Of a DNA stretch of 64,000 nucleotides, positions 1,337 to 63,539 are shown piece after piece. Below the pieces are notes generated by a model. The model ran no database searches, was not told where the DNA came from, and was given only the letters and a program-made list of their open reading frames with translations. How positions within the stretch are numbered: position 1 is the stretch's first letter; each line of letters starts with the position of its first letter. This stretch comes from a virus (Duplodnaviria > Caudoviricetes): positions 128,001 through 192,000 of IMG/VR virus record IMGVR_UViG_3300013426_000014. The stretch is one strand, 5' to 3'. The position numbers were made by a program, and so were the translations under genes.

Positions 1337-2938
1337 ATGAACCAGCAGACAGAGACGATTATATATCATTATGCGCTCGCCAATCCAGAGCTCGCGCTTA
1401 AGATAAAACCCGACTTTTTTGACGCGAAATATCTCCGTGAGCTTTTCGAGATAGGACGTGATTACTCGATCAAGTACCACAGCGCGCCGACGGCGGACCA
1501 GATGAAGCAGCTTGTCACCATTGCCGGCAAGCAGGACAAACTGCCGGCGGACGTCATTGACATTATATACGCGCAGAAACGTGACATGTCTCAGTATGAC
1601 GAGACATGGCTGTATGACACGACGACGGCGTGGGCGCAGTGGGAGAATTTCACCGCCGCCGTTATCGATTCCGTGCAGTTCGTCAAGCTGCATAATGACG
1701 AGATAACGGCGGAGAACGTCAGGGAGTATACAGAAAAGGCGAAGGGAACGTTCAACCGTAACGCGATAATGGAGTTCGGCGAGCAGGACAATGGGTCAGA
1801 TTTCTATGACGCGGCCGCGCATAAGCCGTCGCAGCTCGTTCACTCGCCGACTGGTGTCGATTATATAGATAAATGCCTTGCCGGCGGCGGATGGCCGGGC
1901 GCGCTTATCGGTTTCGCCGGCGCGCCGAAGATAGGAAAGTCGGTGTGGCTGCAGAACTTGTGCGCCGCATCTGTCAAAGCCGGGCAGGATTCATTGTACG
2001 TGTCGCTTGAGCTGCCGGAGGAGATGATCATACAGCGTATCGGATCAAACCTCCTTGGCATTCCGTCTGGCGATTACAGCAAGATGGCGGAGGATGAACA
2101 GTATATGAAGGATAGGATCCGGCAGTTCAGGGAGTCGAATCTCGTCCCACCGGGACGTCTCGTTGTCAAGAGTTTCCCGACGTCGACGCTGACGTCGATA
2201 GAGTTCGAGGCGTTTATACTTAAACTGGAGGAGGAGTTTTCGACGTCAGACAAGCCGTTCAAGTTCAAGAACATATATCTTGACTATATCAACATCATGA
2301 AGAATTATCGGAATCCTAATTCCGAGAACACCTACATGAAAATTAAGTGTCTCGCGGAAGATGTCAAGGCGGTGGCGATAAAGAACGACTGGTGTGTGTA
2401 CACGGCGACGCAGACGAACAGGGGACAGTTCGACCAGACCGACATGACCGCCAATCAGATTTCGGAGTCCGCCGGTTTCGGCGCCACGGTTGACGCGTTG
2501 TTCGGAATTATCGCCGACCAGATACAGAAGTCACAGGGCATCTACTTTCTAAAATGTTTGTACGACCGCGTCTATCCGATGGACAACACCAGAAAGAAAT
2601 TCAACTTCGACAAGCGGTATCTCAGGATAACAGAGGATATGGAGTCACAGATCGAGACCGCGGAGGATATATACAGATCCGTTACCGTCCCGGGATTTAA
2701 TGAGAACATGCGCCGTGGCGGCGGTCCCGGATCGGATCGTCAGTGGAGTGAGCACAGGGAACGCGCGGCGTCTGTCCCGGTCGCCCCGTCATTCGGTGAT
2801 TCCGCCCCGCTCACACTCGATACCGGTCGGAACGGCTCCGACCTGACGCAGACCGCAGACGATTTCGACGCGCAGGGATCCGCTGCCGCGGTGTTCAACC
2901 AGACGCCGCCTATTTATACTGGCGCCGGATTGTTTTAG
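1337..2938 (+). CDS. dnaB: Replicative DnaB-family helicase (T4 gp41-like)
   Basis: Walker A GAPKIGKS, YVSLELPEE, LDYINIM, TATQTNR and ISES motifs; TAG stop; no TGA. Confidence 0.9.
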   Translation: MNQQTETIIYHYALANPELALKIKPDFFDAKYLRELFEIGRDYSIKYHSAPTADQMKQLVTIAGKQDKLPADVIDIIYAQKRDMSQYDETWLYDTTTAWAQWENFTAAVIDSVQFVKLHNDEITAENVREYTEKAKGTFNRNAIMEFGEQDNGSDFYDAAAHKPSQLVHSPTGVDYIDKCLAGGGWPGALIGFAGAPKIGKSVWLQNLCAASVKAGQDSLYVSLELPEEMIIQRIGSNLLGIPSGDYSKMAEDEQYMKDRIRQFRESNLVPPGRLVVKSFPTSTLTSIEFEAFILKLEEEFSTSDKPFKFKNIYLDYINIMKNYRNPNSENTYMKIKCLAEDVKAVAIKNDWCVYTATQTNRGQFDQTDMTANQISESAGFGATVDALFGIIADQIQKSQGIYFLKCLYDRVYPMDNTRKKFNFDKRYLRITEDMESQIETAEDIYRSVTVPGFNENMRRGGGPGSDRQWSEHRERAASVPVAPSFGDSAPLTLDTGRNGSDLTQTADDFDAQGSAAAVFNQTPPIYTGAGLF

Positions 2939-2990
2939 AAAAATGAGTGACAGCCGTTTATATAATATTTAGAAAAATGATTAGATATGA

Positions 2991-3458
2991 ATGGGTGTCA
3001 AACTAAATAAACTTTTCAACTCCGGCTGAAACGCGGTCGATTATGGTGAGGAACGGTCGAGAAACGCCGACATAGCGGTGCTGCCGCTCGTCAGTGACAT
3101 GTACGAGGAAAGCACGACGTCCGACATAACGGGCGTCATCACACGGAAGAGTATGAACGAGGATATGTACAGGGTGTTCACTGCGTCGCCGTGATTTGAG
3201 AAGTATTCGGAGGATGGCAGACGCGTCGACAAGAAAGACATGCCGTCTGTTTATTTTTACTTTCGAGACGAGATGATGAAGAAGAACGACTACAATCTCG
3301 TTGAGGTGCTGTGCGCGATATGCGAGTTTTTTGACCTTAATTATTCGTATATGTATAATAATGTGCTCAGCCTTGCCGATAAGTCGAAGGTTCTCGAAAT
3401 ACTGGAGGACGATTACGGGCTGTCGGACAGATTCGGCAAAACGAACAGGCTGTTTTAA
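2991..3458 (+). CDS. Hypothetical protein, 155 aa, 2 TGA=Trp
   Basis: ATG 2991 MGVKLNKLFNSGWNAVDY... is in frame with track ORF 3240-3458; TAA overlaps the next ATG. Confidence 0.7.
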
Positions 3459-4561
3459 TGGAGATGTCTTTGAAACATATTGACATGACGGACGTCAAAT
3501 ACGCCGTACTCATATCGGACGTGCATCTCGGGTGTAGGAACGCGAGTATAGAGTGGATTGATAACATCACCTTGTACATGCGTGATTTTTTTGTGCCGCT
3601 CGTCAGGCGGACGGCGGTGAAAGGCAAGACGATCGTCATTGTCGCCGGCGACTGATACGATAACAGGCTGTCGATTGACATAAACGTCATGAACAGGGGG
3701 ATGGATCTAATGCGCGGCATCGCGTCCGTCGCTCCGGTGTACATGATAACAGGAAACCATGACGTTTATAAGAAGAACGGAAACGACGTCAACTCGATAC
3801 GGTATCTCGGCCTGCTCGACAATGTCACGGTCGTCGAGAACCCCACGGTCATGGATTTCGATAGGATGAGATTCCTGCTGTATCCTTGATCTGGTGATAT
3901 CAAGAAAGATACCGATTTCATATCGGCTGTCGACGGTGTCGATTATATGATCATGCATGATGATGTCAAGGGCCAGACGTATGACAACGGACGCAAAATA
4001 TTGTCAGGTCTGGATGCAGGCGTGTTTTCTGGCAAAGGAATATATTCCGGCCATATACACAAAAGGCAGGAGAACGGAAGGGTGACTTACATTGGATCGC
4101 CTTATCAGCTGCGTCGGTCAGATATAGGGAACGTGTGCGGCGTGTACACGCTCGACGTCTCTGATGATGATGTCGTCCGGACGTTTGACGCGAACACGGT
4201 CAGCCCGGAGTTCATAAAGATACGGCTCGATGATGTGCTCGACCTGCCGTACGGCGCAGTCAAGGGGATGATGACCGGCAATTACGTCGATTTTGTTGTT
4301 CGGAAATCCGCGCTTGTGTCGGTTTGCATGGCAGATATGATGCGCGCGCTTGATTCGGCCGGCGCGAAGAAGGTCCGCGTCGTCGTTGAGCAGGATGTTG
4401 ACCCGTCTGTGTCAGATACTGTGACGAAAGCTGTGACTGTCGATGACATGATTAAGAAAAAGATTGATGCGTTCGACTTGTCGGACGAGCAGAAAAAAAC
4501 GATACTTGACTTGAACGGCCGGTATATGACGGCGTTTAATGAGATGTCGATCAGCGAGTAA
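3458..4561 (+). CDS. Recombination endonuclease subunit (T4 gp47/SbcD/Mre11-like metallophosphoesterase), 367 aa
   Basis: Three track fragments join via TGA at 3653 and 3887; motifs SDVHLG, AGD(W)YDNR, GNHD, YP(W), SGHIHKRQ, YIGSPYQ. Confidence 0.92.
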
Positions 4562-4575
4562 AAAAACGGAATTAT

Positions 4576-6243
4576 ATGAGGATAACTGAATTGCAGTGGA
4601 GGAATCTGTTCTCGTACGGGAACGACATACAGACGTTGGATCTGTCAGACGGCGGCAAGCTCTGGCAAGTTGCCGGCAGGTCCGGCGCCGGCAAGTCTGT
4701 CATCATGTCGCTGCCGAAGCTTCTTTTCTTCGGCAGAACGGACGGCGTGTCAGTCAACTCGGTCGCGAACAGGATCAACAAGAACGGTTGGCTTCGCGGC
4801 GTGGTGTCAAAAAACGGTGACACGTACGTCATAGAGCGGACGTTTTCGCCGTCAGGACTTACCGTGTCGAAGAACGGTGTCGATATAGACAAGGCTGGCA
4901 AGAAGAATATGGAGGACGTCATATCGCAGGAAATACTGGACGGCATGCCGTACCACATCTTCGCGAACGTCATTAACCTGTCGCTCAAGAAGTTCAAGTC
5001 ATTCATATCGATGACGCCGGCGGATAAGCGGCTGATCATTGACCGGATATTTTCGCTTGACGTGCTCAACGCGGTCCATGAGATGGTGGCGAAGGACATC
5101 AGGGACGTCGGAAATGTCATCAATATGAACAAGGGACAGATATTCACCATCGAACAGAACATAAAAAGGTCGGAGGACGAACTTGATCGACTGACAAAAA
5201 AGACCGCGGAGGAGGACACTGCCGCCGCCGCGGAGCTTGAGACGAGCATCACCCGGATCGATGGGGAGATTAACAAGCAGAAGACAGACGAGGAGAAGTA
5301 CACGGCGAAATCGCTTGAGCTGATACAGAAGTCCGGCGCGGTGAAAAACGCCCTTTCCGGCATGCGCTTCGAACTGAACAATGTACTTAATATGATCGCG
5401 CTGTATAATCAGAACAAGTGTCCTACATGCGGGACGCCGTTCACCGGCGCCGGCTTCGACGAGGTTCGGAAAGGTCTCGCGGACAAGAAAGCGGAGATAG
5501 AGACGAACATATCGCAATATGACGCGGCAGTCCGGTCGTACGACGACATGATATCAAAGGTTGACACATGCGTCCAGACACTCAGGAACAATGTACAGTC
5601 GCTCGACCGGCTTAGATCCGCCGCCGTCATCAAGCTGAATGACATCCGGTCGGCGGAAGGACGCCGCGGGCAGGCGGCGGCGATCAACAACATCATAACG
5701 GCGGCGAAGGAGAGCAAGGTCGAGATGGACAAGATCGTCGGCGAGAACACCGCCAACATGGAATGCCTTAACATCCTTGAGGAACTTTACGGGTCGGACG
5801 GCGTGAAGAAGGAGATGATGACGGCGTATTTGCCGGAGTTGAATGAAGATATCATGTCGTCGCTGTCGTCGATGTCATTTCCGTACTCACTCGAGTTTGA
5901 CGGAAACTTTGACCCGCACATCGACGATCTTGGTGAGGAAATATCGCCCGACACTTTGAGCGAGGGGGAGCGCAAGCGCGTCGATATTGCGGTCATATGC
6001 GCGCTCGTCAAGCTGATAAAACGGAAATATCCGCAGCTCAACATGATAGCGCTCGACGAAACGTTGGGATCGTTGGATCCGGAGACGTCATGTGACTTGT
6101 TGAGATACCTCGGCGAGCTTGCTGAAGAAATCGACATCAACGTGTTTATCGTGAGTCACGCCGCCCTTGATGAGTCGTTGTTCGACAAAAGGATCACGGT
6201 CACGAAGGAGAACGGTTTCAGCTCGATCGACATATCGGCATAA
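4576..6243 (+). CDS. Recombination ATPase subunit (T4 gp46/SbcC/Rad50-like)
   Basis: Walker A GRSGAGKS, coiled coils, zinc hook CPTCG, signature LSEGE, Walker B ALDE. Confidence 0.93.
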   Translation: MRITELQWRNLFSYGNDIQTLDLSDGGKLWQVAGRSGAGKSVIMSLPKLLFFGRTDGVSVNSVANRINKNGWLRGVVSKNGDTYVIERTFSPSGLTVSKNGVDIDKAGKKNMEDVISQEILDGMPYHIFANVINLSLKKFKSFISMTPADKRLIIDRIFSLDVLNAVHEMVAKDIRDVGNVINMNKGQIFTIEQNIKRSEDELDRLTKKTAEEDTAAAAELETSITRIDGEINKQKTDEEKYTAKSLELIQKSGAVKNALSGMRFELNNVLNMIALYNQNKCPTCGTPFTGAGFDEVRKGLADKKAEIETNISQYDAAVRSYDDMISKVDTCVQTLRNNVQSLDRLRSAAVIKLNDIRSAEGRRGQAAAINNIITAAKESKVEMDKIVGENTANMECLNILEELYGSDGVKKEMMTAYLPELNEDIMSSLSSMSFPYSLEFDGNFDPHIDDLGEEISPDTLSEGERKRVDIAVICALVKLIKRKYPQLNMIALDETLGSLDPETSCDLLRYLGELAEEIDINVFIVSHAALDESLFDKRITVTKENGFSSIDISA

Positions 6244-6328
6244 GGTGTAAATAATTGAAAAATGACAGGGACGTGAACAACGTTCCCGTTTTTTGTTTTA
6301 TATTCGCGGTATCATAAAATAACATATT

Positions 6329-6916
6329 ATGAAAAGAATTATAACTATTATCACATTATTGTTCTTTTACACATTTGCTTCTGCACAAAAGACAAGTTAC
6401 AAAGAAACGATACAAAATTGGAACAGCGGATTTACATTGGGAATGAATTGCGGTATTGTTCCGTCTGTTATACGTTCTGACATGCACGGCGCGGCCGGCG
6501 CATTCATCGGGCTTAACCTGAATATTGCAGGATTTGATATAAATGCGCATTTCAAAAGCAGAAAACATGGAAGTACGATAGAAGTCGGCAAATGGGAAGA
6601 TGAATATAGAGGCGCATTATATCAATTTGGATACAGATTACCGGTTATTTCAAAATGGGTATGTGTAACTCCTTTATTGGGATTATATAAAGAACAATGG
6701 GGTACGACAAACGGTTATGAATACACGATTGATCATAATGGCAGTATCACGAATGGATATAATATTGATATGACAATACTTGATTTTGATTACGGTGGAA
6801 AAATCGAAATAGCTGTAACACGGAATTCCAATATCAGAATGTTATGTTCAATAACAGTGACCAATCATTTTGTTTCTTATGGCATCGCGTTACATTGTTC
6901 GCCTATTTGTTTTTAA
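6329..6916 (+). CDS. Secreted/outer-membrane beta-barrel-like protein
   Basis: Signal peptide MKRIITIITLLFFYTFASA-Q, alternating beta-strand pattern, C-terminal Phe; visibly AT-richer than flanks. Confidence 0.55.
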   Translation: MKRIITIITLLFFYTFASAQKTSYKETIQNWNSGFTLGMNCGIVPSVIRSDMHGAAGAFIGLNLNIAGFDINAHFKSRKHGSTIEVGKWEDEYRGALYQFGYRLPVISKWVCVTPLLGLYKEQWGTTNGYEYTIDHNGSITNGYNIDMTILDFDYGGKIEIAVTRNSNIRMLCSITVTNHFVSYGIALHCSPICF

Positions 6917-6973
6917 GATAAAATAAATTGATACATAATCACATATAATTTTTGAAATATAAATCAGAAAGTT

Positions 6974-7756
6974 ATGTGATCAAGTCATAATGAAACCGAA
7001 TTCTTCAAAGGTGAGTTCGTGCTCGACCGGCAGATAGAAGATTTCTGCACTTCATATTCTGGAGCGCCATATGATTATGAGTTTATTAGGACTGTTGAGG
7101 ACGGGCTGCAGGAACGATTGAACAACACCGAATGGGTGTCGACAGAGACGGGACGGCGGAAAGATGGGACGATCATAGACCAGTACTCGATACCGTCTGC
7201 CGATGGTTTCGGCAGCAGGGCGGAGAATTACGTGTACAACGCCCTTGTCGATATGGATATCGTCGACGAGCCGAAGAATCCGAATGGCCCAATGAAGTTT
7301 CCCGACTATATCGCGAAAAATGGGACATGGATCGATTCAAAGGCGGTGATTTGTAAAAGTCCGAAACGGAAAACTGGACGGTGGATCCCGAACTATAATT
7401 CGGGTTTGGGCGACAGGGACGAGATACTGAAAACAGTCGAGCACTTGAAAACGTGACGAAATCACAATTCGGAATCATCGGCGTTGATAATTCTGACATT
7501 TTACGCCATACAGAACGGGTATATCGAATTACTGTATGTCAAAGTTGTGCCGGAGTTGCTTTACATATCAGTGTACAAGGATCTGCATGACTTTCAGATG
7601 AAAAGAGTCGACCGGAAAACCGGCGAGATCAAGAACGCGAACGTGCAGGGACGGCTGACTGTCAGGACGTACACGGATAATAATAAATCATCCGCCGTCT
7701 ATATCGACAGACTGTTCGACACGGTGGACAATATTCGGAAACGGGAGAAACGATAA
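6974..7756 (+). CDS. PD-(D/E)XK nuclease, restriction-endonuclease-like, 260 aa, TGA at codon 2 and at 7454
   Basis: ATG TGA TCA... is in frame with track ORFs 7019-7456 and 7484-7756; motif RAE...KFPDY...WIDSKA. Confidence 0.6.
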
Positions 7757-7759
7757 ACG

Positions 7760-7788
7760 AACGGCGGATTGCACATCCGCCGTTTTTT
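7760..7788 (+). terminator. Intrinsic terminator
   Basis: aacggcggat-tgcac-atccgccgtt followed by T tract. Confidence 0.8.
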
Positions 7789-7827
7789 AATAAATATCAA
7801 GAACGTAATAGAACGTAATCGGTAATC

Positions 7828-8076
7828 ATGGAAAAACTGTCGGCGAAAGGGGTCAAGATACAGAGAATGATACATGACCTGTATACGGAATGCCTATCGT
7901 ACTGCCGCGCGGCGGAAAAGATCGGCGCGTGCCGTCAGGAACGGACGTACAAGATCGCCGACACACTTGATACGTTCCTTTCAAGATTCATCAACCTGAA
8001 CAATCATGTCATCGCCGTCGAGAACGACAGGGAAACTGACACATCCGGCACAATATATCCGGATCGTCATATTTAG
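7828..8076 (+). CDS. Hypothetical protein, 82 aa
   Basis: ATG to TAG; AATAAATAT late-like motif near 7789. Confidence 0.6.
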   Translation: MEKLSAKGVKIQRMIHDLYTECLSYCRAAEKIGACRQERTYKIADTLDTFLSRFINLNNHVIAVENDRETDTSGTIYPDRHI

Positions 8077-8224
8077 CGCGTATTTCACTTCTGACGCGAT
8101 GTTATGTATCATATGCGCAATCTATCATTTACTATAAAATCGCGCGTCTGGACGTGAATAAACAGTCAAGAAACAAATTTGAATAAAATAATCGGAAACA
8201 TGTACGTGTTTCCGAATTTTTTAT

Positions 8225-8232
8225 TATATTTG
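8225..8232 (+). promoter_or_regulatory. Bacteroidota sigma-A-type -7 element (TAnnTTTG)
   Basis: TATATTTG just before ORF 8237; related TATATTCG at 1312-1319 and 6299-6306. Confidence 0.45.
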
Positions 8233-8236
8233 CGGT

Positions 8237-8632
8237 ATGAATGATTCTTGCAGTATTATGACGAAAGTAAACCGCAGACAATATACGCCGAAACGTTGGC
8301 GGAGGATGATCGATATGCTGATACCGGACGCCGATAATGACGATCTGCTTAATTACGACAACAGGCACCGATCTGCATGGTATACAATTAATATCGAATG
8401 CAGAAACAAGCTTTTTATTGATCCGGACAAGGACCGTGTCTGTGGCATCCGGTCTGGCATTATATTGCCACATCTCCGAATGGAGCCGATGCTGCCGGCG
8501 AGGTATGAGAAGCGGACAGAAATGTTCAGTAATCTTCTATACGGACAGAGCGTGAAGCGCCGCATTGTCGTTTGGTACCCGACACCGAAACAGTATGGTG
8601 ATTACGGAAGGATTTCACCGGGACGGACATAA
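8237..8632 (+). CDS. Hypothetical protein
   Basis: Clean ATG-TAA ORF after an AT-rich promoter region. Confidence 0.6.
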   Translation: MNDSCSIMTKVNRRQYTPKRWRRMIDMLIPDADNDDLLNYDNRHRSAWYTINIECRNKLFIDPDKDRVCGIRSGIILPHLRMEPMLPARYEKRTEMFSNLLYGQSVKRRIVVWYPTPKQYGDYGRISPGRT

Positions 8633-8642
8633 ATAAAATGAT

Positions 8643-8960
8643 ATGACACCGGAATGGAACAGCAAAAAGAAAAAATTCGCGTCGTCACGTTATTATTGCG
8701 TGACGCGGACGTATTCGCCGTCATTCAAGAATCCGGGAATGCAGAACGTCACGTGCAGTATATACGCGGCGGACGACATTAATACTGTCACCGCATATTC
8801 ACAGACAGAGCCGAAGATCAAGGTGACATATCAGATAACGGATGACGAATGGCGCCGTAGGATGGAGTTGAATGAATCTGATTCACTCCGCCGGCGCGGA
8901 AAGGATATGTGGTATTCAAGTGTAATTTTCTCTTATCCGATGTCAACTAAAGAATCATAA
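8643..8960 (+). CDS. Hypothetical protein
   Basis: ATG-TAA ORF, 10 nt after the previous gene. Confidence 0.65.
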   Translation: MTPEWNSKKKKFASSRYYCVTRTYSPSFKNPGMQNVTCSIYAADDINTVTAYSQTEPKIKVTYQITDDEWRRRMELNESDSLRRRGKDMWYSSVIFSYPMSTKES

Positions 8961-9048
8961 CGGAACACGAATAATTTTACGGAATGCCTGATATAATTTA
9001 TATCAGGTTAATTTATTATATTGCTTGACAAACATAAAAGATTTCTGT

Positions 9049-9360
9049 ATGGAATACAGGCTGGTCGAGCCGTACGAGCGGAAGGCGAGATCGATCGAGG
9101 AAAGTCTCGGCGGGCTCGACACGATAAAGGCGGGGACGCCGACAGAACGGGTCGTGATAAAGATGCGGATGGCCGGGGCGCCATACGCGCGAATACAGTC
9201 GGCGCTGGGCATGATACCAAAACGGACGATATCGATGATACTGAAGGAGAACGCTCCGGAGCTGGTGTCGATTGATGTGAATAATCACAAAATACCTGAT
9301 GACCTGCATAAGGATTATGACTGATCATGAGATGATTTCTGCCGCAAAAAGATAAGATAA
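9049..9360 (+). CDS. Small putative HTH DNA-binding protein, 2 TGA=Trp near C-terminus
   Basis: MEYRLVEP...GAPYARIQSALGMIPKRTISMILK (HTH-like) ...DYDWSWDDFCRKKIR-TAA. Confidence 0.55.
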
Positions 9361-9367
9361 TGACAAG

Positions 9368-9775: not shown

Positions 9776-9787
9776 CAGCTCTTTTTT
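9758..9787. terminator. Bidirectional intrinsic terminator
   Basis: aaaaaagagctg-ctttaa-cagctctttttt. Confidence 0.85.
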
Positions 9788-9789
9788 CA

Positions 9790-9930: not shown

Positions 9931-9951
9931 ATATTATTTATCAGCAGATCC

Positions 9952-9960: not shown

Positions 9961-9983
9961 CAGGTAATTAACAATCATGGATT

Positions 9984-54510: not shown

Positions 54511-54528
54511 ACACATGTTGTTACAGCG

Positions 54529-55176: not shown

Positions 55177-55181
55177 CAGTC

Positions 55182-55553: not shown

Positions 55554-55577
55554 TGTAAAAATAGGATAGTAAAATAT

Positions 55578-56447
55578 ATGAAACGTTACTTTCAGTGGAT
55601 AACGGGAGATGATTTCGGTAAGGTCGAGACGCTTGCCGGCATAAGGTATGAGAAAGGCGAGTATTTTCTTGATTTCGATTCCGGTGATTCGATGAACATG
55701 CGTTTTGTCGCGGCGATGACGAATGATCCGAATTCGTTACATAACAGGTTTTTGGTCGAGATTAAGGATCCGTATGATAGGTGGGGCCGGGATGTGAAAA
55801 AACCGAGGGTCGAGACCGTCGGCGACGCGGATGGTAATGATATCACGGTAGAAATTCCGCCGATTGACGATATCGTCGGGGCGACAAGGAATGGCGACGG
55901 CGATTACACAATAGGACAGTCTTCCGTCGGCAAGGTGACGCTGCTACCGCCGAAATTCAGGGGCCCGTTCCTTCCGCTGCCGGATCCAGCCGATTATTTC
56001 GCTGAAGAAAATGAGCGGAAGATAACGGCGATGCGCGAGCGCCGCCGACCGGATGACACGTGTTCCGCCGCGCCGGAGCCGGAAAAAATCGTGGTCCAGA
56101 AGAGTGAGTCCGCCGCGGTCATTGAGCCGCCGGCAGAATTAAAGACTATGGATGGCAGCGGGAAATCTACTGTGATAAAGGCGCCGACTGACGTTATATC
56201 CGAATCAGATCCGGTCTGGATTCTTGTGAACTCGTCGAAGAAGACGGCGGCGAGCATGGACGTCACGATAGAGATCGGACTGCCGTCGAAAGATCTGTAC
56301 AAGCTGGTGTCGACACAGTTCGACGGCGGTGCCGATAAATTTGAAAAAATCATACGGAAATATATTGTCGACTCGCTTACGACCGGCCCGGCGGCGGAGC
56401 AGATCGTTAAATCCGTGATGGAAGAGTACAAATCTGGAAATGAATAA
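55578..56447 (+). CDS. Hypothetical protein
   Basis: 289-aa ATG-TAA ORF. Confidence 0.75.
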   Translation: MKRYFQWITGDDFGKVETLAGIRYEKGEYFLDFDSGDSMNMRFVAAMTNDPNSLHNRFLVEIKDPYDRWGRDVKKPRVETVGDADGNDITVEIPPIDDIVGATRNGDGDYTIGQSSVGKVTLLPPKFRGPFLPLPDPADYFAEENERKITAMRERRRPDDTCSAAPEPEKIVVQKSESAAVIEPPAELKTMDGSGKSTVIKAPTDVISESDPVWILVNSSKKTAASMDVTIEIGLPSKDLYKLVSTQFDGGADKFEKIIRKYIVDSLTTGPAAEQIVKSVMEEYKSGNE

Positions 56448-56515
56448 CGGGAGTTCCTGGTAAAGCGTGTTGGGTGATAAATAGTAAAATTTTATCACCC
56501 AACTATTTTGTTATT

Positions 56516-56941
56516 ATGAAGTTATACATGACAATAGAGCCGTTGAGTACATTGAAGCACGTGTTCACGAATCTCCGGTCATTCGAGATAATAGATGTGG
56601 ATTTCATCATCAATGATATCGGGCTTGATGTCACAAAGGAGCGCAATGCGTTTATAGTCAATAATGAGATAGTTGATTTGTTGAAAAATTATTCCCGGAG
56701 CAGACGGACGTCCGGTATAATATACGTCAACAGGAATCTTAATTGTGACGTCATAAACAGTATACGCGACACGCTGTCCGGATATGACAAATCACTTGTT
56801 GACGAGCTTATCCTTATGGATAACAAGGACGTGCCGCGGATTTCCGGATTGTATCCGTGTGTCGATGAGGTGCTTTACTTCACCGCGTTCAAGAAGGTCC
56901 GGATAATAGAATGCAAGCCGCTCCCGAATTTCAACATTTAA
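56516..56941 (+). CDS. Hypothetical late protein
   Basis: ATG 56516 after GATAAATAG at 56476-56484. Confidence 0.65.
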   Translation: MKLYMTIEPLSTLKHVFTNLRSFEIIDVDFIINDIGLDVTKERNAFIVNNEIVDLLKNYSRSRRTSGIIYVNRNLNCDVINSIRDTLSGYDKSLVDELILMDNKDVPRISGLYPCVDEVLYFTAFKKVRIIECKPLPNFNI

Positions 56942-56944
56942 CAT

Positions 56945-57949
56945 CTAAGGCTGACCCATCAATCCGAAACACTGCTTGCCGGCGAGATTTCATCCCGTCG
57001 CGAGTCACAGGAAAAATCCGAGGTTTTTTCATATAGGAAGCCGCTCGTACTTAGGCAGCGGCTCGACAAGCGGAAGTAACGCGAGCGCGATGTTTATCGC
57101 TTTCAATATCTTTTCCCGTGTGTCATATACGAATGTAGGCGAATCTCATTTAACTGTCGGTTTCGCGGTGTCGATGTCGCCTAATGCTGATTTTGCAGCA
57201 GACATTCCCTTTTTTATAGATGACGCCATCTTTACCGATTTCAGTTTTCCCATCGCGACGACGGGCAGGTCGAGTACAGTGTCTATGGCTTTAATGACTG
57301 GTGTCGGTATAACGCGAACGCACGATTGGTTGAGATTCAATATTTTCGTCTTAACAGGGCGCATAGATTTCGGTGTCAGGAAAAAGGCGATCCCTTCCGG
57401 ATCGATGGTGAATAGTTTCGGTATCGCCTTCAGTAGTGCCGATATGACGCTGAGCACGGCGGCTATTATTTTCAGCACTGCCTGTATCATAATAACAAGC
57501 GTTGAGAACATCGCCTGTAGTACCGGTGCGATTTTTCCTTCTGCCGCGAGCATCAACAAGTTTCGCTTTATTTTGACTATCAATAGTTTCGCGTAAAGGC
57601 TTGCTTTTTTGATCTTAAGTGATAACAGTTCCATTTTGGTCCTGCATCTTTTCTGCATCGCCGCTATCTTGGACGCTGCTTTTTTCGAGATGCCATTGAC
57701 GAATTGGTTGAATATTCTGTTCAGATCGATTCTCCGAATAAAATCCGCGTATTTTTCGATTTTCGTAATGAACTTGTTTATCTTGTCGATTCGTTCCTGC
57801 ATTTTACATAGTCGGGATTCGGTCTCGATATCCGGCGTCTCGACGGTCATGTCGTCATTTATGTATATTCCAGCCTCCACCGATCCGGTATCGGTGTCGG
57901 CTATCATCGCATCCAGCGTGAGTTCAAGATTGTCCGATGTTGTCGCCAT
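56945..57949 (-). CDS. Helical/hydrophobic protein, 334 aa; all four Trp are TGA in the last 67 aa
   Basis: Read-through of TGA 57146 gives ...EPLPKYERLPI(W)KNLGFFL(W)LATG(W)NLAGKQCFGLMGQP-TAG, abutting the convergent gene. Confidence 0.7.
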
Positions 57950-58089
57950 AGTAAAATACGCATCTTATTTATTGAAATACAGGATCATCCTTATATTTTC
58001 GCTCCGGAAAAAGTTGTTCTGTTTATATCGGCATTTTGAAAAAGTTGAGCAATGCCTCAATAATATATTAAGACAAATGATTTTTGACT

Positions 58090-58749
58090 ATGCTTGACAA
58101 AGAAACAAGAGAAGTTCTGGACCGGTTGACCGCGCCGGTCATAAAGACGAAACAGAATCCGGTTGACTTTTACAAATGTCGCGATGTGAATGACCCGACA
58201 CGGGCATGGTCTGCCGCCGGCATTGATTTTTATATGCCGCGTTTTCGCGATGGTAAAAATTGGCCGGATGATGATAAGGAATCATGCCCCGCCATCGCCG
58301 ATACAGTCTTTTCTAAAGATTTGCGGGCGAGAAGCGGTAGTGGATGGAAGTCACATATCTTTGGTTATGACCATGATTTCGATCTTAACTATATCGCACT
58401 GCAGCCCGGCGAACGTGTGGCGATACCGTCCGGTATTAAAGCAAGGTTCAATATAAAAGACATTGCGCTTATCGCGTTCAATAAATCTGGTGTCGCGACG
58501 AAAAAAGGACTTATCGTCGGGGCGTGTGTTGTCGATGAAGACTATCTCGGCGAGATTCATATCTCGTTGATGAATACATCAAACACTGATCAGATTCGTC
58601 TGTATGAAAATGAGAAGCTTGTACAATTTCTGGCAATTCCGCTTGTTCGGCCGTGTTTCGGTATGCTCACCGAAAATGAGTGGAATGAATATGTCAATGA
58701 GTCTGATTCACTCCGCGGCGCGGGATGGCAGGGATCAAGTAACAAATAA
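58090..58749 (+). CDS. dut: Trimeric dUTPase
   Basis: AAGIDF, PSGI, NKSGVATK, VVDEDYLGEI, LVQF, RGAGWQGSS. Confidence 0.9.
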   Translation: MLDKETREVLDRLTAPVIKTKQNPVDFYKCRDVNDPTRAWSAAGIDFYMPRFRDGKNWPDDDKESCPAIADTVFSKDLRARSGSGWKSHIFGYDHDFDLNYIALQPGERVAIPSGIKARFNIKDIALIAFNKSGVATKKGLIVGACVVDEDYLGEIHISLMNTSNTDQIRLYENEKLVQFLAIPLVRPCFGMLTENEWNEYVNESDSLRGAGWQGSSNK

Positions 58750-58758
58750 TCAGGTATT

Positions 58759-59256
58759 ATGAGTTTGGATCTTTATATAATTTCACCTGAGCCAATTAAG
58801 AAGAAAACAACAGGCGTATTTTACCGCAAAGACGGTAGGACGCTTGAATGTGAGACGATTGAGCAGGTCAAGACTGCGTTTCCTGATTGTGATCTTTCAG
58901 AAATTACAGTTCATGAATATGAGACCGATGAGTACTGGCATGGCAATCTGACACATAACCTTACCCAAATGGCGGCGGAGGTCAAGGCGGACGGATACAC
59001 ATTGTATGATTTGATGTGGCATCCAGATGATCACGGATTCGTTTATGTGACATATGAGTACGTTGAGCTTGTAAACAGGATGGTTGATATACTCGATGAT
59101 CTTGATCCGGAAGTCATTATAAAAACGACACCAGAAAATGGGTGGGGAACATATGATCTGCTTCTTAGTGTCGCCGGCGATTTCGCCGATCAGCTTATGG
59201 ATCTTTACAATTCTGTCGAGAATTACGAGGATTACAAGGTTGTCGCCGATACATAG
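58759..59256 (+). CDS. Hypothetical phage protein (MSLDLY...NLTHNL..MA...PENGWGTY)
   Basis: Clean ATG-TAG ORF. Confidence 0.7.
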   Translation: MSLDLYIISPEPIKKKTTGVFYRKDGRTLECETIEQVKTAFPDCDLSEITVHEYETDEYWHGNLTHNLTQMAAEVKADGYTLYDLMWHPDDHGFVYVTYEYVELVNRMVDILDDLDPEVIIKTTPENGWGTYDLLLSVAGDFADQLMDLYNSVENYEDYKVVADT

Positions 59257-59285
59257 CGGCTACATCAAATTTGTTATAAAAACCC

Positions 59286-59317
59286 AAAACCGGGCGGTTA
59301 ATTCCGTCCGGTTTTTT
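59286..59317. terminator. Bidirectional terminator
   Basis: aaaaccgggcgg-ttaatt-ccgtccggtttttt. Confidence 0.75.
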
Positions 59318-59344
59318 GTTGTAATGGTCGGTTCCGACCCGTTC

Positions 59345-61048
59345 TTATACGGTTTGTGACCACATGACGCCGAATCCGTCGACAATGCTGTATCTGTATG
59401 TTCCTGCCGTGAATTCCGCGGGTTGTCCTGACATTGTCAGTTCGTCCCCGCCATATAAGAATTTGACCGTCGCGGAGGTTTTCAGTCTGAACTGACCTCT
59501 GTATTCGGTCGAGCCATTCGCCGGCATGCTGATCCGGATGACAGCGCCGTCTATATTGTCGAACACGTACATCTTGCCGTCCGTGATAGTGACATTCTTC
59601 GTCTCGTCTGGAAAATATGTCGTATCGGACAAGTCGATATGCTTTACTGCCGTCTGCCCGCACAGGTTGAGCAGGTTAAGATACATCTCGCACGCCGAAT
59701 CCTGTGACAACGCGGCGGAGTCGTCTTCCGCCGGCGTCATGTAGTCGCCGACGCATTTGACATGACCGTACTGCTTCGCGGTCCCGGCGCCGTGTGTCGT
59801 CAGCGGCGACGCGTGGTTATCTTCCGCGTACTTGACCGCCGACCCGTCCGATATCGCCGACAGCACAGTGTCGACTTTCACGGTCAGCGCGTCATACTTG
59901 TCGTTCAGCGATCTGTTGAATTTGATGTTCGACCGCATGAGATCCAGCGCCTTGTTCAAGTTCGCCGTTACGTTCGCGAAATCTGCCGTTATCTCCGACT
60001 CGCCAGTCGACCAGTCCGATATCTCCGCCGTCGTGTCATCCGTTATCGAGCTTGTTTTGAGGTTCAGCCTGAAAGAGTATCCGTTACCGAATCCGGCGGC
60101 GTTGCTTTTCTTCTTCGTTAGCGACGGAATTGTGAAACTCCCGGACGTCCCGTTCGGCGCGTCAAGAAACAATACGCCGAAAAGATTTGTCGCCAGTATG
60201 TTGTTGCTTGCGCTGTCGTATATCGAGTAATACACGAGCACTGTGTTGAACGTGTATTCCGCCACCGGCTTTATGCCGAGCTTGTCGACGCCTATCGCGA
60301 GATCATCCATCGACAGCGAATGCGCGTCTGCCGCGTTGGTATATGTCCCGTATATATCGCGCAACCCGTTTATGTCGAGCTCCATCGACATGCAGTCGTC
60401 ATCACTTACCGTGTACGCCTCCAGTCCGGACTCGTCGTAATATGGAGACGCGTCGCCTGTCTCCTGAGCGAAGGTCGACCCGGTTTTTCAGTTGTCGTCC
60501 TCTACCTTCTTGAAATATGCGGTCATGCCGCCGAATGACGACGGCACCTGTACATATATCTCGTTGTATATTGTCCGGTCATCCGTCCTGTAGTTCGCCG
60601 CTGCGACTTTGCCGAATCCCCTGACGATTTCCGATCCGGCTTTCTCCTTGTAATATGTCGAGCCGGACGGTGTTGTCACCTTCTCTGATATGTCGATCAG
60701 CCCCTCATGTCGCAGCCATTTTCAGAACGCGCGTTCGGATACGGTCAGGTTCGCGGAGTAGTCATAACCAGTCTCGTTCCGTGCTGCCGTCTCGAGATTC
60801 ATCATATAGTGCTGCAGCTCGTCCTTTATCATGACGCCGGGATTGTCTGACCCGGATCCGCGGTTTTTCCACGCCGTCGTGTTGTCCTTTGTCCCCGGCA
60901 GGTCGAGCAGCGCGTAATGTGACACGCCGACTTTGTTTCCCCTTTCGTTTATGTTGAGCCCTACGTCCTCCGTCGCCGACGGCATTGTATAGAATGTGCC
61001 GCCTTGCGTTCGCATCGCGTTCAGAACGGGTGTCTTGAATTTCGCCAT
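59345..61048 (-). CDS. Structural (baseplate/fibre-anchor-like) protein, 567 aa, 2 TGA=Trp
   Basis: Three track ORFs joined at TGA 60722 (ERAF(W)KWL) and 60488; YGHVK fibre repeat; C-terminal domain resembles that of gene 39027-42200. Confidence 0.7.
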
Positions 61049-61052
61049 TGCC

Positions 61053-61970
61053 TTATGCCTTTTCTATTTTGCCGGACGCCGATATGATTCTGAGATCACA
61101 TCTGCCGTCTTCGTCTGTCCCGGCGCAGACGAGCGTCAGCTGTGTCACCTCCGCGTCGGATTTCATCACTTTCACGCTGATGCCATCATTAAGCCTAACA
61201 ACGAAATCGGATTCCGTTTTTGGGTTGAATATCAGGCTGACCGTGTCACCCTTCGACATCCCCCGCGGGCAGGCCGGTAGTTCGTTGTCTATCTTCAGAT
61301 ATCTCGCGCCGCCGACCTCATAATACCTGAACTTCTCGCCCTTCACCGTATCGGCATAATCGGCCTTGCGGCGGAACTTGTCCGGATCATAAGACACTTT
61401 CGTCATGTAGTATTTGAGCGGATATGTATATGACACATCGGCGTCGAGCGCGGCGAGGTATCTGTTCGCGTCCGCCGCCGTCAGCGTCGCCGGCGTCGTC
61501 GACACCGCGACCACCGTGGATTTCTGCTGCTCCACCGTCACCGGCCTTGCCGTTCTCATCGACTGGCCGGACGTCCCGCCTGTGCCGTCGTTGAATAGAT
61601 GTGCGAGCGTCAGCGCTTTGTACAGCTCGCCGATGCTCGAGTCCATCGCGGTCATTACGTCCTTCAGAGATCTGCCAGTCCCGTCGTCATATGTTACGTT
61701 GCCGATTCCCACCGTTATGTTGTCTGTGTTCTTGATAGTCAGCTGACCATCACAGATTAAATTTTTGAACTTACCGGTGTCACCCTCCACCTTGCCTTCT
61801 GTGTGTACTGGCACTTTCACGTATCCGTCCGTCCCGTCCGACCCATATGACAACACCGCGTCGAGCAGCGCCATCAACGCGTCGTTATTGCCATTGCTTA
61901 TCGACGGGAGCTCGCCGATCAGCGTCGACTGGTGAAGCTGTTTCAATTCCGGTCTTGTAAAATTAGGCAT
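61053..61970 (-). CDS. Hypothetical late/structural protein
   Basis: 305-aa ORF; late motif GATAAATAT at 61996-62004. Confidence 0.65.
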   Translation of the reverse strand: MPNFTRPELKQLHQSTLIGELPSISNGNNDALMALLDAVLSYGSDGTDGYVKVPVHTEGKVEGDTGKFKNLICDGQLTIKNTDNITVGIGNVTYDDGTGRSLKDVMTAMDSSIGELYKALTLAHLFNDGTGGTSGQSMRTARPVTVEQQKSTVVAVSTTPATLTAADANRYLAALDADVSYTYPLKYYMTKVSYDPDKFRRKADYADTVKGEKFRYYEVGGARYLKIDNELPACPRGMSKGDTVSLIFNPKTESDFVVRLNDGISVKVMKSDAEVTQLTLVCAGTDEDGRCDLRIISASGKIEKA

Positions 61971-62063
61971 TTGTCATTGACCTGTTTACGTTTGTATATT
62001 TATCGGTCCGGAATAAAACCGCCGGCGTCCTAATAAAATATTTGATTTGATAAAATCTTGCGT

Positions 62064-63539
62064 ATGATTATAAACAGAGAGATACTGACGGGTTGCGACC
62101 CGGACGGGAACGTGACGAAGACAGAGCTTATCAGCTATGTCGGTGCTGACGGGACCGTCAAGTTCCTTAACTATCCGATACCGAAGGACTGGTGGTTCAA
62201 TTGGAGCTACTCGAAATACGGCGACAGATCCGCGGATCCGTACTACCGGTCATGGGACGGCAAGCCGGTGACGAAACGGTTCCTCGACGACAACAGAGAT
62301 ATATGCGAGAACAGGGAACATGAGATACTGTGCTCGATGGTGAAGGCTTATCCGCAGATGTCTGTCTTGTACGATATGAACATACCGACCACCGCGTTCA
62401 TAGATATTGAGGTCGAAGTCGACGGGACCGGTTTCCCTGAGCCGTCGAAAGCTCAGTCACCGGTGACGACGATATCTTACGTTGTCGGCAACGTCGTGAC
62501 AGTATTCGGCCGCGCCGTCTTGACCGACGACCAGATATCTGGCATCGCGAAGAAGGTGAAGGAACACACGGAGCGTTTCGGTGTCGACTACACATTTATA
62601 TATAAGTATTACCGGAACGAGTATGACATGCTGGAGGATTTCTTCTTTAATTATGTGAAGAATATTCCGGGGTTGACCGGTTGGAACCTGTTCGGTTTCG
62701 ACTGGCCGTATCTGTATAACAGGTGCAAGAACATCGGACTGAACATAAAGAATATTTCGCCGACCGGCAAGTGGACGAAGCACAAGGTGCTGAAATCTGA
62801 GATAACGGCGGAGATACCGATGCACAAGGTCATATACGACTATCTTGAGATATACAAGAAATGGGACAGGACTGTCGAGGTGAAGGAGAACTCAACGCTT
62901 GATTTCGTCGCTTCCGCCGCACTTGGCGTTACAAAAGTGAAGCATAGTCTCGGCTTTCAGGATATGTGGGAGCAGGAACCAGACAACTATGTGTTTTATA
63001 ATGCGATAGACTCGGTTCTTGTTGCGGAGCTCGATAAGAAGATCAAGACGTCGAAAACTATGTACGCGCTCGCAAATCTGACGCATGTCGATCTGCTGAA
63101 CAATATATCGCCTGTACGTACAATCGAGATTGTTCAGTGTGAGTATGCTTGGATGGACGGCAAGGTTTTTCCCAACGTCAAGAACAACGCGGTGAAACAG
63201 GATTATGAAGGCGCGTATGTGTATCCGACGATACCGGGTATTTACAGGAACATCCTTGCCCTTGATTTTAACTCTCTGTATCCGACTACTCAAAGACAGT
63301 TCAACATTTCCCCTGATACGTTCATCAAGAAAGACAAGTCGTACACGCCGGAAGCGGACGAGATCAAGACTGTTTCCGGCGCCGTGTATAAGCGGAACGA
63401 GAAGGGACTGCTGCCTAAGATACTGACCGACTTTTACGCGAAAAGAAAGGGGTTCAAGAAAGTCATGATGGCGGCGGACGACGAGATCAATTATCTCGAG
63501 AACGTTTATGAGCGGCGCACAAGCAAAGCGATGTCATAA
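62064..63539 (+). CDS. Family B DNA polymerase, N-terminal part (3'-5' exonuclease plus motif A), split gene
   Basis: ExoI FIDIEVE, ExoII GWNLFGFDWPY, ExoIII YNAIDS, YEGAYV, motif A LDFNSLYP; TAA occurs before any KxxxNSxYG or YGDTDS motif. Confidence 0.9.
   Translation: MIINREILTGCDPDGNVTKTELISYVGADGTVKFLNYPIPKDWWFNWSYSKYGDRSADPYYRSWDGKPVTKRFLDDNRDICENREHEILCSMVKAYPQMSVLYDMNIPTTAFIDIEVEVDGTGFPEPSKAQSPVTTISYVVGNVVTVFGRAVLTDDQISGIAKKVKEHTERFGVDYTFIYKYYRNEYDMLEDFFFNYVKNIPGLTGWNLFGFDWPYLYNRCKNIGLNIKNISPTGKWTKHKVLKSEITAEIPMHKVIYDYLEIYKKWDRTVEVKENSTLDFVASAALGVTKVKHSLGFQDMWEQEPDNYVFYNAIDSVLVAELDKKIKTSKTMYALANLTHVDLLNNISPVRTIEIVQCEYAWMDGKVFPNVKNNAVKQDYEGAYVYPTIPGIYRNILALDFNSLYPTTQRQFNISPDTFIKKDKSYTPEADEIKTVSGAVYKRNEKGLLPKILTDFYAKRKGFKKVMMAADDEINYLENVYERRTSKAMS

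Follow-up and report, generated by a model that had tools for sequence, protein, structure and literature searches.

A phage that reads TGA as tryptophan need not use the codon evenly, and this locus raises the question of why some of its genes are rich in TGA and others free of it. The window that we analyzed is a 64,000 nt stretch of DNA, positions 128,001-192,000 of record IMGVR_UViG_3300013426_000014, from a 269 kb jumbo phage genome with 50% GC; feature coordinates refer to the window unless marked as genome. Genome-wide statistics cover 244 genes, all called with a simple custom caller, only 34 of which carry a functional label. The original prediction held that TGA is partitioned by function, such that replication proteins are readable by unmodified host machinery while virion proteins need the code switch.

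TGA as a tryptophan codon in the window

TGA is a Trp codon in this recoded genome. In the translation of a papain-family (C1) peptidase (25849..26694, plus strand; PF00112, E=1.4e-10), TGA falls on the Trp positions of the motif NS-W-G..W-G, and at 86 TGA sites aligned with a standard-code relative, that relative has W at 42 and F or Y at 25. The phage encodes a tRNA-Trp(UCA) outside the window (genome 206860-207240). A 293-nt intervening sequence interrupts the gene, and the tRNA is obtained when genome positions 206892 and 207186 are joined. No genes for a release factor (including RF1) or TrpRS were found in the phage. The host is most likely a standard-code organism, judging from the kinship of the phage with Lak phages, a TAnnTTTG motif, and the similarity of its ThyA to those of Bacteroidota, its nearest relatives (65-71% identity).

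Nine genes for replication and nucleotide metabolism in the window contain 46 TGG and no internal TGA, exactly as the original hand count had it. On the plus strand are the DnaB-like replicative helicase (1337..2938; phrog_19, E=1.7e-47; 0 TGA / 7 TGG), an SbcC/gp46-like ATPase (4576..6243; phrog_77, E=1.6e-73; 0/3), an S1-domain protein (50912..52003; PF00575, E=4.6e-10; 0/5), a dTMP-kinase-like protein (52033..52677; phrog_761 and, weakly, PF02223; 2 TGG), thymidylate synthase ThyA (52652..53479; PF00303, E=1.4e-115; 0/6), dihydrofolate reductase (DHFR; 53446..53985; PF00186, E=7.1e-42; 0/3), dUTPase (58090..58749; PF00692, E=4e-9; 0/5), and the N-terminal part of a family-B DNA polymerase (62064..63539; PF00136 and PF03104; 0/10) with 40% identity to Lak phages. 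The DNA primase lies on the minus strand (10686..11837; phrog_47, E=8.5e-29; 5 TGG). For the primase and the dTMP-kinase-like gene, TGA-free status hinges on the choice of gene boundary. In the primase, the third codon from the called start is TGA, and this codon is therefore probably 5' of the true start. The dTMP-kinase-like gene has its only TGA at codon 212 of 214, three codons ahead of the TAG, and its protein is nearly identical under both codes.

The sole DNA-metabolism gene with internal TGA is that of the SbcD/gp47-like nuclease (3458..4561, plus strand; phrog_100, E=1.6e-57, residues 3-349; 2 TGA / 1 TGG). Its TGA codons, 66 and 144, lie within the homology region, and codon 144 is also TGA in G002, a second TGA-recoded relative with 24.5% GC. 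Immediately upstream, a 155-aa gene of no assigned function (2991..3458, plus strand; 2 TGA / 0 TGG) has an ortholog in G002. Several small genes of the replication cluster carry TGA, as does gp47, and this counts against reading the pattern as one of timing.

Other genes of the window use TGA. A BspA-type LRR protein of 2834 aa (13095..21599, minus strand; Pfam LRR_5, E=2.2e-57; phrog_14959) has the 12 TGA attributed to it (with 34 TGG), although the CotH domain that had also been proposed was not found with Pfam. The 2628-aa BACON-domain adhesin-like protein (30862..38748, minus strand; PF13004, E=1.5e-12) has 20 TGA / 31 TGG, matching the earlier estimate of about 20, and the count of five TGA among eight Trp codons in the peptidase holds if translation starts near 26053, the likely start. 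TGA also occurs in the genes for a baseplate wedge subunit (23709..25622, minus strand; phrog_219, E=2.9e-26; 1 TGA / 3 TGG), a 1093-aa protein of no assigned function that is virion-side by neighborhood only (26960..30241, plus strand; 6/7), and a 1057-aa protein of no assigned function (39027..42200, minus strand; 4/8). In the window alone, the TGA skew gives a Fisher p = 5.5e-8.

Depletion of TGA across the genome

Genome-wide, TGA is present in only 39% of genes. Among the 113 genes with at least four Trp codons, 49 are TGA-free, compared with a permutation mean of 22.6 and a maximum of 35 in 5000 permutations (p < 2e-4). A mixture model with a 40% TGA-free class and a TGA share of 0.35 in the rest improves the log-likelihood by 39 units over a single rate, supporting the conclusion that selection holds a defined gene set, ~40% of genes by this fit, free of TGA. 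Genes that use TGA do so at the neutral level (TGA share 0.392, neutral A-ending share 0.395). Therefore, the signal is a purge from one gene set and not an enrichment in late genes: the pattern is a constraint on that set rather than a gate built into late genes.

Expected TGA counts were derived from each gene's own share of A-ending codons. By this measure the DNA-metabolism genes should contain 34.7 TGA but contain 4, and minor virion genes contain 61 compared with 60.1 expected; one of the 20 DNA genes has internal TGA, compared with nine of 14 virion genes. Small genes with a high A-share in the block at genome 232-251 kb, dozens of them with no function assigned, have 6 TGA compared with 46.3 expected. 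The original prediction had proposed comparing TGA/TGG with functional class throughout the genome, and this comparison gives a significant class effect that is kept with A3 and GC3 as covariates (LRT chi-square 31.6, p = 2e-8; gene-label permutation p = 1.5e-4) and under strict PHROG categories only (p = 0.002).

Base composition could have produced such a skew if local GC or third-position bias favored TGG regionally. TGA share does correlate weakly with A-ending share, climbing from 0.12 to 0.39 over quintiles, and is maximal in the lowest GC3 quintile. However, both GC and GC3 are higher in minor virion genes than in DNA genes, and TGA is nonetheless far commoner in the former; together with the covariate analysis, this refutes a compositional artefact, to which we give next to no credence. 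The same conclusion follows from the plus-strand genes at genome 178-203 kb, which have 2 TGA compared with 31.5 expected, whereas the minus-strand islands embedded among them have 6 compared with 4.4 expected (Fisher p = 5e-6). One island is a 334-aa gene of no assigned function (56945..57949, minus strand; 4 TGA / 0 TGG) and the second comprises two genes (59345..61970, minus strand), one of 567 aa (2/4) and one of 305 aa without Trp, with a GATAAATA box at 61997.

The skew might instead record history: if recoding were recent, enzymes would retain ancestral TGG and TGA would mark new Trp codons in fast-evolving fiber and adhesin genes. The largest TGA users are indeed giant, fast-evolving adhesin-like genes, and Borges et al. 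(bioRxiv 10.1101/2021.08.26.457843) describe code change over short evolutionary timescales. Yet where a Trp site is conserved with G001, the standard-code relative, the counts are 1 TGA : 46 TGG in DNA genes and 14:30 in minor virion genes (p = 1e-4). In the minor virion genes these shared sites are already 32% TGA, close to the proportion at non-conserved sites (14:23). TGA also occupies the family-wide papain Trp positions, and its share in TGA-using genes has reached the equilibrium A-share. The same genes are depleted in G002, with its 24.5% GC: orthologs of the TGA-free genes have 9 TGA : 19 TGG and those of the TGA-using genes 53:17 (p = 1.3e-4). An evolutionary lag is thus largely refuted and, in our judgment, extremely improbable.

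Nor is it at all likely that the TGA-free genes are recent gains from standard-code donors, or that the host itself decodes TGA, with the skew arising in a different way. ThyA, with its close Bacteroidota relatives, DHFR, dUTPase, NrdD, and NAD ligase belong to types that are commonly host-derived, which favors acquisition, but the TGA-free set also contains phage-core genes whose orthologs occur in Lak phages and both relatives: DnaB, PolB, primase, SSB, gp46, helicases, sheath, tube, and major head. A host that natively reads TGA gives no reason for a purge in 40% of genes, and the phage encodes its own tRNA(UCA). According to Borges et al., TGA occurs in ~90% of genes in code-25 phages and in 26-71% in recoded phages of standard-code hosts.

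Timing or translational cost as possible causes

We favor, with a probability of about 0.6, an explanation in which early genes are purged of TGA and late genes are released after tRNA-Trp(UCA) becomes available, probably because the host's standard code must read the early genes. The tRNA of the phage would itself decode TGA as Trp in a standard-code host. In genes translated before it, or independently of it, purifying selection would remove all TGA, leaving a set with an identical reading under both codes: the replication, recombination, and nucleotide-metabolism genes and the two long small-gene blocks at genome 178-224 kb and 232-251 kb. In genes expressed only once the tRNA is available the constraint would be lifted, and TGA/TGG would drift to the A/G ratio of other purine-ending pairs. 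Until the switch, no TGA-bearing protein could be made at full length, which would apply to most proteins of the minor virion class as well as to gp47 and the late sigma factor gp55. We infer the code of the host, the temporal classes, and the sequence of events in this scheme, the early or late timing of genes coming from promoter-like motifs and from analogy with T4.

In T4, late transcription depends on the gp55 sigma factor and the late promoter TATAAATA. The phage has a gp55 homolog (PDB 7d7c_F, E = 3.6e-4) that also matches cyanophage late sigma factors; unlike T4 gp55, it holds an in-frame recoded stop (TGA, codon 85), and a host-type TATATTTG promoter box lies at -31. As in T4, an 8-bp A/T-rich box, GATAAATA, a putative late promoter element, is strongly enriched in intergenic DNA, although its first base is G and not T. 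The window contains 13 copies where 2.06 are expected (span 1258..62004), at 1258, 9935, 25645, 38797, 42243, 44263, 48127, 49860, and the island position above on the minus strand and at 9952, 11865, 25688, and 56476 on the plus strand. Of 39 copies genome-wide, 34 are not fully within a called gene, with intergenic DNA making up ~11.5% of the genome. Most lie 27-41 nt 5' of start codons. They precede the major head, portal, baseplate wedge (30 nt upstream), and adhesin genes, as well as that of the 1057-aa protein, and none of the nine replication and nucleotide genes (0/9).

Two motif proxies lean weakly in the direction that an early/late reading predicts. TGA occurs in 2 of 12 genes with a host-type TAnnTTTG box upstream and in 72 of 133 without one (p = 0.016), and in 17 of 24 genes with NATAAATA upstream and 57 of 121 without it (p = 0.044). 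A link between TGA and promoter-like boxes is seen for boxes directly upstream, but not when whole same-strand gene runs are classed as late by GATAAATA, a cruder assignment (p = 0.17). The tRNA-Trp(UCA) gene itself has a box of each kind upstream, host-type at genome 205714 and GATAAATA at 206602, which counts against the timing explanation.

Translational cost offers a different account, in which competition between TGA decoding and host release factor 2 truncates some of the product, and the purge scales with the output or fidelity importance of each gene, regardless of when it is expressed. The major head, sheath, and tube genes, late by analogy with T4, have 0 TGA / 18 TGG, and the rise of TGA share with A-ending share also fits a cost, as does the failure to find a phage release factor or TrpRS that would tilt the competition. 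In G002, depletion is graded and not all-or-none: DnaB (TGA/TGG 2/4), helicase 3 (3/1), and gp46 (1/2) carry TGA at conserved Trp sites, so the clade as a whole does not keep its replication genes free of TGA. However, the G-ending bias of DNA-metabolism genes is no stronger than that of minor virion genes (mean A-share 0.31 vs 0.34), and yet they are depleted; the high-A-share small genes at genome 232-251 kb are purged too; general codon bias accounts for the absence of TGA from the major virion genes (2.7 expected, P = 0.05); and the motif associations agree with timing. We regard cost as a possible but rather doubtful substitute for timing. Under the timing explanation, the abundant major head, sheath, and tube proteins would be TGA-free for a separate reason, their strong G-ending codon bias.

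The claim that virion proteins need the code switch is contradicted by these three genes and by four fiber-like or unassigned genes of 616, 547, 696, and 392 aa (42351..49833, minus strand; PF22337 tail-fiber repeat in the first). The latter have 0 TGA / 11 TGG (3.6 TGA expected, P=0.012) and GATAAATA boxes before three of them, and so appear to be late genes without need of the switch. Partition by function thus survives as a strong genome-wide skew that gp47, the 155-aa gene, the fiber-like genes, and the major virion genes break, and readability by unmodified host machinery describes DNA-metabolism genes that are nearly TGA-free, excepting gp47 here and DnaB, helicase 3, and gp46 in G002.

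Relation to known recoded phages

A contrast between TGA-free replication genes and recoded structural genes, with the same early-then-late model, is already published for other recoded phages, as the original prediction recognized. In Borges et al. (later Nat Microbiol 2022), the Agate, Jade, and Sapphire clades reassign TGA to Trp and share with this phage the placing of TGA in frame where Trp is expected, a suppressor tRNA encoded by the phage, a gene set recoded only in part, recoded structural and lysis-type genes, and replication genes compatible with the standard code. Unlike those phages as described there, this one has a GC content of 50%, and not a low one as in the published route to recoding; it is kin, through PolB, to the TAG-recoded Lak phages; RF1 and TrpRS were not found in it, and its tRNA(UCA) is interrupted; and TGA is at the neutral codon ratio in its recoded genes rather than enriched, with the most abundant virion genes TGA-free. 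According to the same source, Lak replication genes are mostly recoded, which differs from this phage and counts against timing.

The Lak megaphages of Prevotella have T4-like core genes in common with this phage, including PolB and gp55. Their genomes are twice as large, and they reassign TAG (to Gln) and not TGA. As in this phage, gp55 of Lak-C1 holds recoded stops, in the form of three in-frame TAG codons.

TGA as a tryptophan codon and its predicted decoder

The window spans bases 128001–192000 of a single virus contig of 269,322 bp and 50% GC, which is linear according to IMG/VR and 87% complete according to CheckV; positions below refer to this contig (the genome) unless marked as window positions. 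Among named phages, it is closest to the Prevotella Lak phages; the family-B polymerases of the contig and of the Prevotella Lak megaphages share 40% identity, and the contig's ThyA is nearest to Bacteroidota. Viral and metagenome matches reach a top identity of 50–63%, with no closer relative for following TGG/TGA flips site by site. Genes were called with a dicodon-based caller of our own in which TAA and TAG are the sole stops and TGA has a neutral score, followed by two manual corrections. The 244 called genes contain 262 TGA and 838 TGG codons in frame.

Open-frame content is approximately doubled once TGA is taken as a sense codon. In the papain-family peptidase, TGA occupies the Trp positions of the hallmark NS-W-G..W-G pattern. 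We used the whole genome of a relative, G001 (IMGVR_UViG_3300031992_000003; 364 kb), whose open-frame statistics fit the standard code, and aligned 98 phage proteins to it. At the 86 TGA sites covered by these alignments, G001 has W at 42 and F or Y at 25 (67 of 86 aromatic), and the TGG sites have a similar profile. Together, the alignments and reading frames indicate that TGA is a tryptophan codon in this phage. We considered and rejected the possibility that TGA is a true stop in some genes, as no called gene has a long non-coding-looking tail past a TGA; the lone doubtful case is a 150-aa ORF at genome 224203. Despite its standard-code fit, G001 carries a tRNA with anticodon CTA (an amber suppressor) at ~93489–93560, among 46 tRNA genes called by ARAGORN.

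ARAGORN finds 33 tRNA genes in the phage contig, including Trp(CCA), and no tRNA with a UCA anticodon in the unspliced contig; scanning the tRNA region against Rfam brought up no tRNA(UCA) and no intron family. Only after genome position 206892 is joined to 207186 does ARAGORN call a tRNA-Trp(UCA) (tca), the gene being interrupted by 293 nt in the anticodon loop. The phage thus has its own decoder for TGA, in a split gene. Release factor and TrpRS genes (PF00472, PF03462, PF00579) were not found in the contig, which is 87% complete.

Distribution of TGA among genes

The original prediction held that TGA codons are partitioned by gene function, with replication genes using TGG only. Its hand counts are exact: DnaB helicase, gp46/SbcC, primase, the S1-domain protein, the dTMP-kinase-like protein, ThyA, DHFR, dUTPase, and the N-terminal part of PolB together have 46 TGG and no internal TGA, with 20 TGA in the BACON adhesin, 12 in the LRR giant, and 5 of 8 Trp codons in the peptidase. 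The skew is real but leaks in both directions. SbcD/gp47, whose gene immediately precedes gp46, uses TGA at codons 66 and 144 (2 TGA, 1 TGG), both within the homology region and the second also TGA in a relative, and a neighboring 155-aa gene has two. On the virion side, the genes for the major head, sheath, and tube proteins, outside the window, have 0 TGA and 18 TGG, and four fibre-like genes (window 42351–49833), of which three follow late-type boxes, together contain 11 TGG but no TGA, so the claim that virion proteins need the code switch does not extend to these proteins. Adjoining the tube and sheath genes, genome 43–4410 encodes a 1455-aa Ala/Gly-rich protein with hydrophobic, membrane-like stretches and a GC3 of 0.90, much higher than elsewhere in the genome; family and PDB searches with it gave no match, and it may be a tape-measure protein, possibly cut by the contig end.

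Across the genome, 94 of 244 genes (39%) carry TGA, and a two-class mixture, in which 40% of genes are TGA-free and the remainder have a TGA share of 0.35, describes the data far better than a single rate. When TGA and TGG labels were shuffled over all Trp codons, the 113 genes with at least four Trp codons included 22.6 TGA-free genes on average and 35 at most, as compared to 49 observed, and the heterogeneity among genes was never reproduced. TGA is thus not used throughout nearly all genes, as it would be in a phage of a natively TGA-reading host (code 4/25), because of this 40% TGA-free class.

Functional labels were assigned with PHROGs and Pfam to 34 genes, comprising 20 for DNA and nucleotide metabolism (DNA genes), 3 major virion genes, and 11 minor virion or virion-side genes, of which 3 (a 1093-aa protein, a 1057-aa protein, and the peptidase) were placed by neighborhood alone. 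PDB sequence searches with four Trp-rich unknown proteins gave no matches. The DNA genes have 4 TGA and 109 TGG codons and the minor virion genes 61 and 113. Base composition could in principle produce such a skew. We derived a neutral expectation for each gene from its own share of A-ending codons (A-share) among its two-fold purine-ending codons (Lys, Glu, Gln, and Leu-TTR). On this scale, TGA is depleted in the DNA genes (4 observed, 34.7 expected) and at expectation in the minor virion genes (61 observed, 60.1 expected); the major virion genes have 0 where 2.7 are expected (P = 0.05), a zero explained by their strong G-ending codon bias. A plus-strand block at 178–203 kb has 2 TGA codons with 31.5 expected, while three minus-strand genes embedded in it have 6 with 4.4 expected (Fisher p = 5e-6). 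A composition artefact is further disfavored because GC3 is higher in the minor virion genes than in the DNA genes. Rather than vanishing once GC content is controlled, the association between TGA and gene class survives: the class term remains necessary in a logistic model that includes A-share and GC3 (chi-square 31.6, p = 2e-8), and permutation of class labels among genes gives p = 1.5e-4. A test restricted to PHROG categories gives p = 0.002. The 71 TGA-free genes with at least three TGG codons hold 355 Trp codons, for which ~110 TGA would be expected at their A-share of 0.309.

The ends of genes have a pattern of their own. TGA is ~3- to 4-fold over-represented in the last few codons, with 9 in the last three codons genome-wide and 2.4 expected; four genes end in TGATAA, and seven have their sole TGA within the last 8 codons. 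Examples are the dTMP-kinase-like gene, with TGA at window 52666–52668, three codons before its TAG, and the gene at window 48193–48630, with TGA at codon 141 of 145. These codons may be what is left of former TGA stops, or else gene ends whose protein is nearly unchanged between the two codes. TGA-free genes also shun TGA as a terminator, which TGA could be in no more than 2 of the 29 genes of the 178–203 kb block. Gene-end TGA and terminator avoidance can both be read as further signs of a genome working under two codes.

Two observations concern individual genes. The family-B DNA polymerase is fragmented: its N-terminal part, at window 62064–63539 in a wider region at genome 190064–194000, is followed directly by genes for a 536-aa homing endonuclease and a metallophosphoesterase, and the C-terminal part lies far off on the opposite strand at genome 11184–12455. 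Genome 32981–37093 (5 TGA, 14 TGG) encodes a 1370-aa protein whose C-terminal domain is an N-acetylmuramoyl-L-alanine amidase (Amidase_3, PF01520, E = 5.4e-15); the protein may be a cell-wall hydrolase that is carried in the virion or related to lysis.

Selection against TGA and gene history

A serious alternative to selection is history, in which conserved enzymes keep ancestral TGG codons and fast-evolving fibre genes gain new TGA-Trp codons. At Trp sites conserved with G001, minor virion genes have 14 TGA and 30 TGG, approximately the same as at their non-conserved sites (14 and 23), whereas DNA genes have 1 TGA and 46 TGG at conserved sites (p = 1e-4 against minor virion genes). In all TGA-using genes pooled, the TGA share is 0.392, with an A-share of 0.395 in comparable codon pairs, so that exchange of TGG for TGA is at neutral equilibrium where it is allowed and blocked elsewhere. 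The pattern is one of purifying selection on one gene set. There is no sign of TGA being favored in late genes, and positive selection for it was rejected. A TGA share of 80% or more is seen in five genes, compared to 1.3 expected, but all five are high in A-ending share. The first TGA in a gene is slightly nearer the N terminus than chance (median 0.20 versus 0.26, p = 0.016), a shift that start-codon miscalls could cause.

The only other TGA-recoded relative reached, G002, is a 49.6-kb contig of 24.5% GC that is syntenic with genome 91–140 kb. Its orthologs of TGA-free genes have 9 TGA and 19 TGG, versus 53 and 17 in orthologs of TGA-using genes (p = 1.3e-4), with a neutral TGA expectation near 0.9 for both sets. 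The idea that replication proteins are free of TGA as a rule, which already fails for gp47 in the present genome, fails in G002 for DnaB (2 TGA, 4 TGG), a second helicase (3 and 1), and gp46 (1 and 2), all with TGA at conserved Trp positions, so these replication proteins could not be made there without the decoder. TGA depletion is a graded, conserved tendency that is nearly absolute in the present genome.

Promoter-like boxes, the code-switch model, and gp55

In T4-type late transcription, a single A/T-rich, −10-like box of the TATAAATA type precedes late genes without a −35 element. A box in the phage that resembles it, GATAAATA, occurs 39 times genome-wide with ~8 expected, and 13 times in the window with 2.06 expected. 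Of these copies, 34 are not fully within a called gene, and they mostly stand 27–41 nt before start codons, preceding the major head, portal, baseplate wedge, and adhesin genes, among others. Genes with NATAAATA upstream carry TGA in 17 of 24 cases versus 57 of 121 without it (p = 0.044), and genes with a host-type TAnnTTTG box upstream in 2 of 12 versus 72 of 133 without (p = 0.016). Both associations run as early/late timing would predict, but are modest in size. When whole same-strand gene runs were labelled as late from their first GATAAATA box, TGA was not associated with the label (odds ratio 0.82, p = 0.17); with early and late genes interspersed, this labelling is too coarse and was set aside. 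Near the decoder, a GATAAATA box at genome 206602–206609 sits immediately against the 5′ end of a tRNA-Met gene, ~258 nt before the split tRNA-Trp(UCA), with a host-type box 1.1 kb further upstream. With both box types upstream of it, the decoder could be expressed early or late.

The partition matches the model proposed by Borges et al (bioRxiv 10.1101/2021.08.26.457843) for other recoded phages, as predicted. They describe the recoded stop in 26–71% of genes in phages of standard-code hosts versus ~90% in those of recoded hosts, with structural and lysis genes recoded and replication genes compatible with the standard code. As in those phages, in-frame TGA encodes Trp, there is a phage suppressor tRNA (here the split tRNA-Trp(UCA)), the gene set is partially recoded (39% of genes), and structural and lysis genes are recoded while replication genes are clean, with gp47 and the major head, sheath, and tube genes as exceptions. 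The model would further require decoding to shift during infection, from standard early on to alternative later, and a standard-code host, to which the Lak kinship, the Bacteroidota affinity of ThyA, and the TAnnTTTG boxes may indirectly point. The same study calls replication-gene recoding "variable", with Lak replication genes mostly recoded, in agreement with the graded depletion across relatives. The partition is numerically right and statistically robust, and adds one more well-supported case to a phenomenon already known. The published code-switch model is the best available explanation of it, at a probability of roughly 0.6. Our results refine that model in three ways: the mark left by evolution is that early-type genes are purged of TGA, with neither a gate nor stop-codon selection in late genes; abundant virion proteins are exempt; and the rule is graded across relatives. 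TGA status would also sort the genes of an uncultivated jumbo phage, by sequence alone, into those readable in a naive host cell and those readable only after the decoder appears, covering ~200 genes of unknown function here.

A homolog of the gp55-family late sigma factor is encoded on the minus strand at genome 77666–78073. It matches gp55 in PDB 7d7c_F (E = 3.6e-4) and, by tblastn, cyanophage "late transcription sigma factor" (E down to 1e-13). Its start is preceded at a distance of 31 nt by a host-type TATATTTG box, and codon 85, within the aligned conserved region, is an in-frame TGA where G001 has TGG (Trp); in the gp55 homolog of the Prevotella phage Lak-C1, TAG occurs in frame three times. 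The code switch might time the whole late program via this one regulator, though we consider this unlikely. Production of full-length sigma factor, and with it the firing of GATAAATA late promoters, would then have to await maturation of the intron-split tRNA-Trp(UCA), and TGA in virion genes would be a neutral by-product of expression after the switch. Such a timer fits the neutral TGA share of virion genes as well as the absence of TGA from the major capsid, sheath, and tube genes and, if true, would explain how late genes can do without TGA themselves. However, one TGA among two Trp codons is the chance level for a permissive gene, and the link between the code switch and late transcription thus stays conjectural. 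Should the link be real, a transcriptional cascade would be controlled by a change of genetic code, as a new kind of developmental timer.

Two further features of the boxes can be noted. Tight back-to-back pairs of GATAAATA on opposite strands, at window 9935–9959 (17 nt apart) and 25645–25695 (43 nt apart), resemble divergent late promoters. Enrichment between genes is also seen for the Bacteroidota-type −7 box TAnnTTTG, with 50 of its 124 copies there, and a full TTTG-N16-TATCTTTG promoter-like site stands before tRNA-Ile at genome 203176–203203 in the tRNA region; the enrichment and this site are a clue to a Bacteroidota host.
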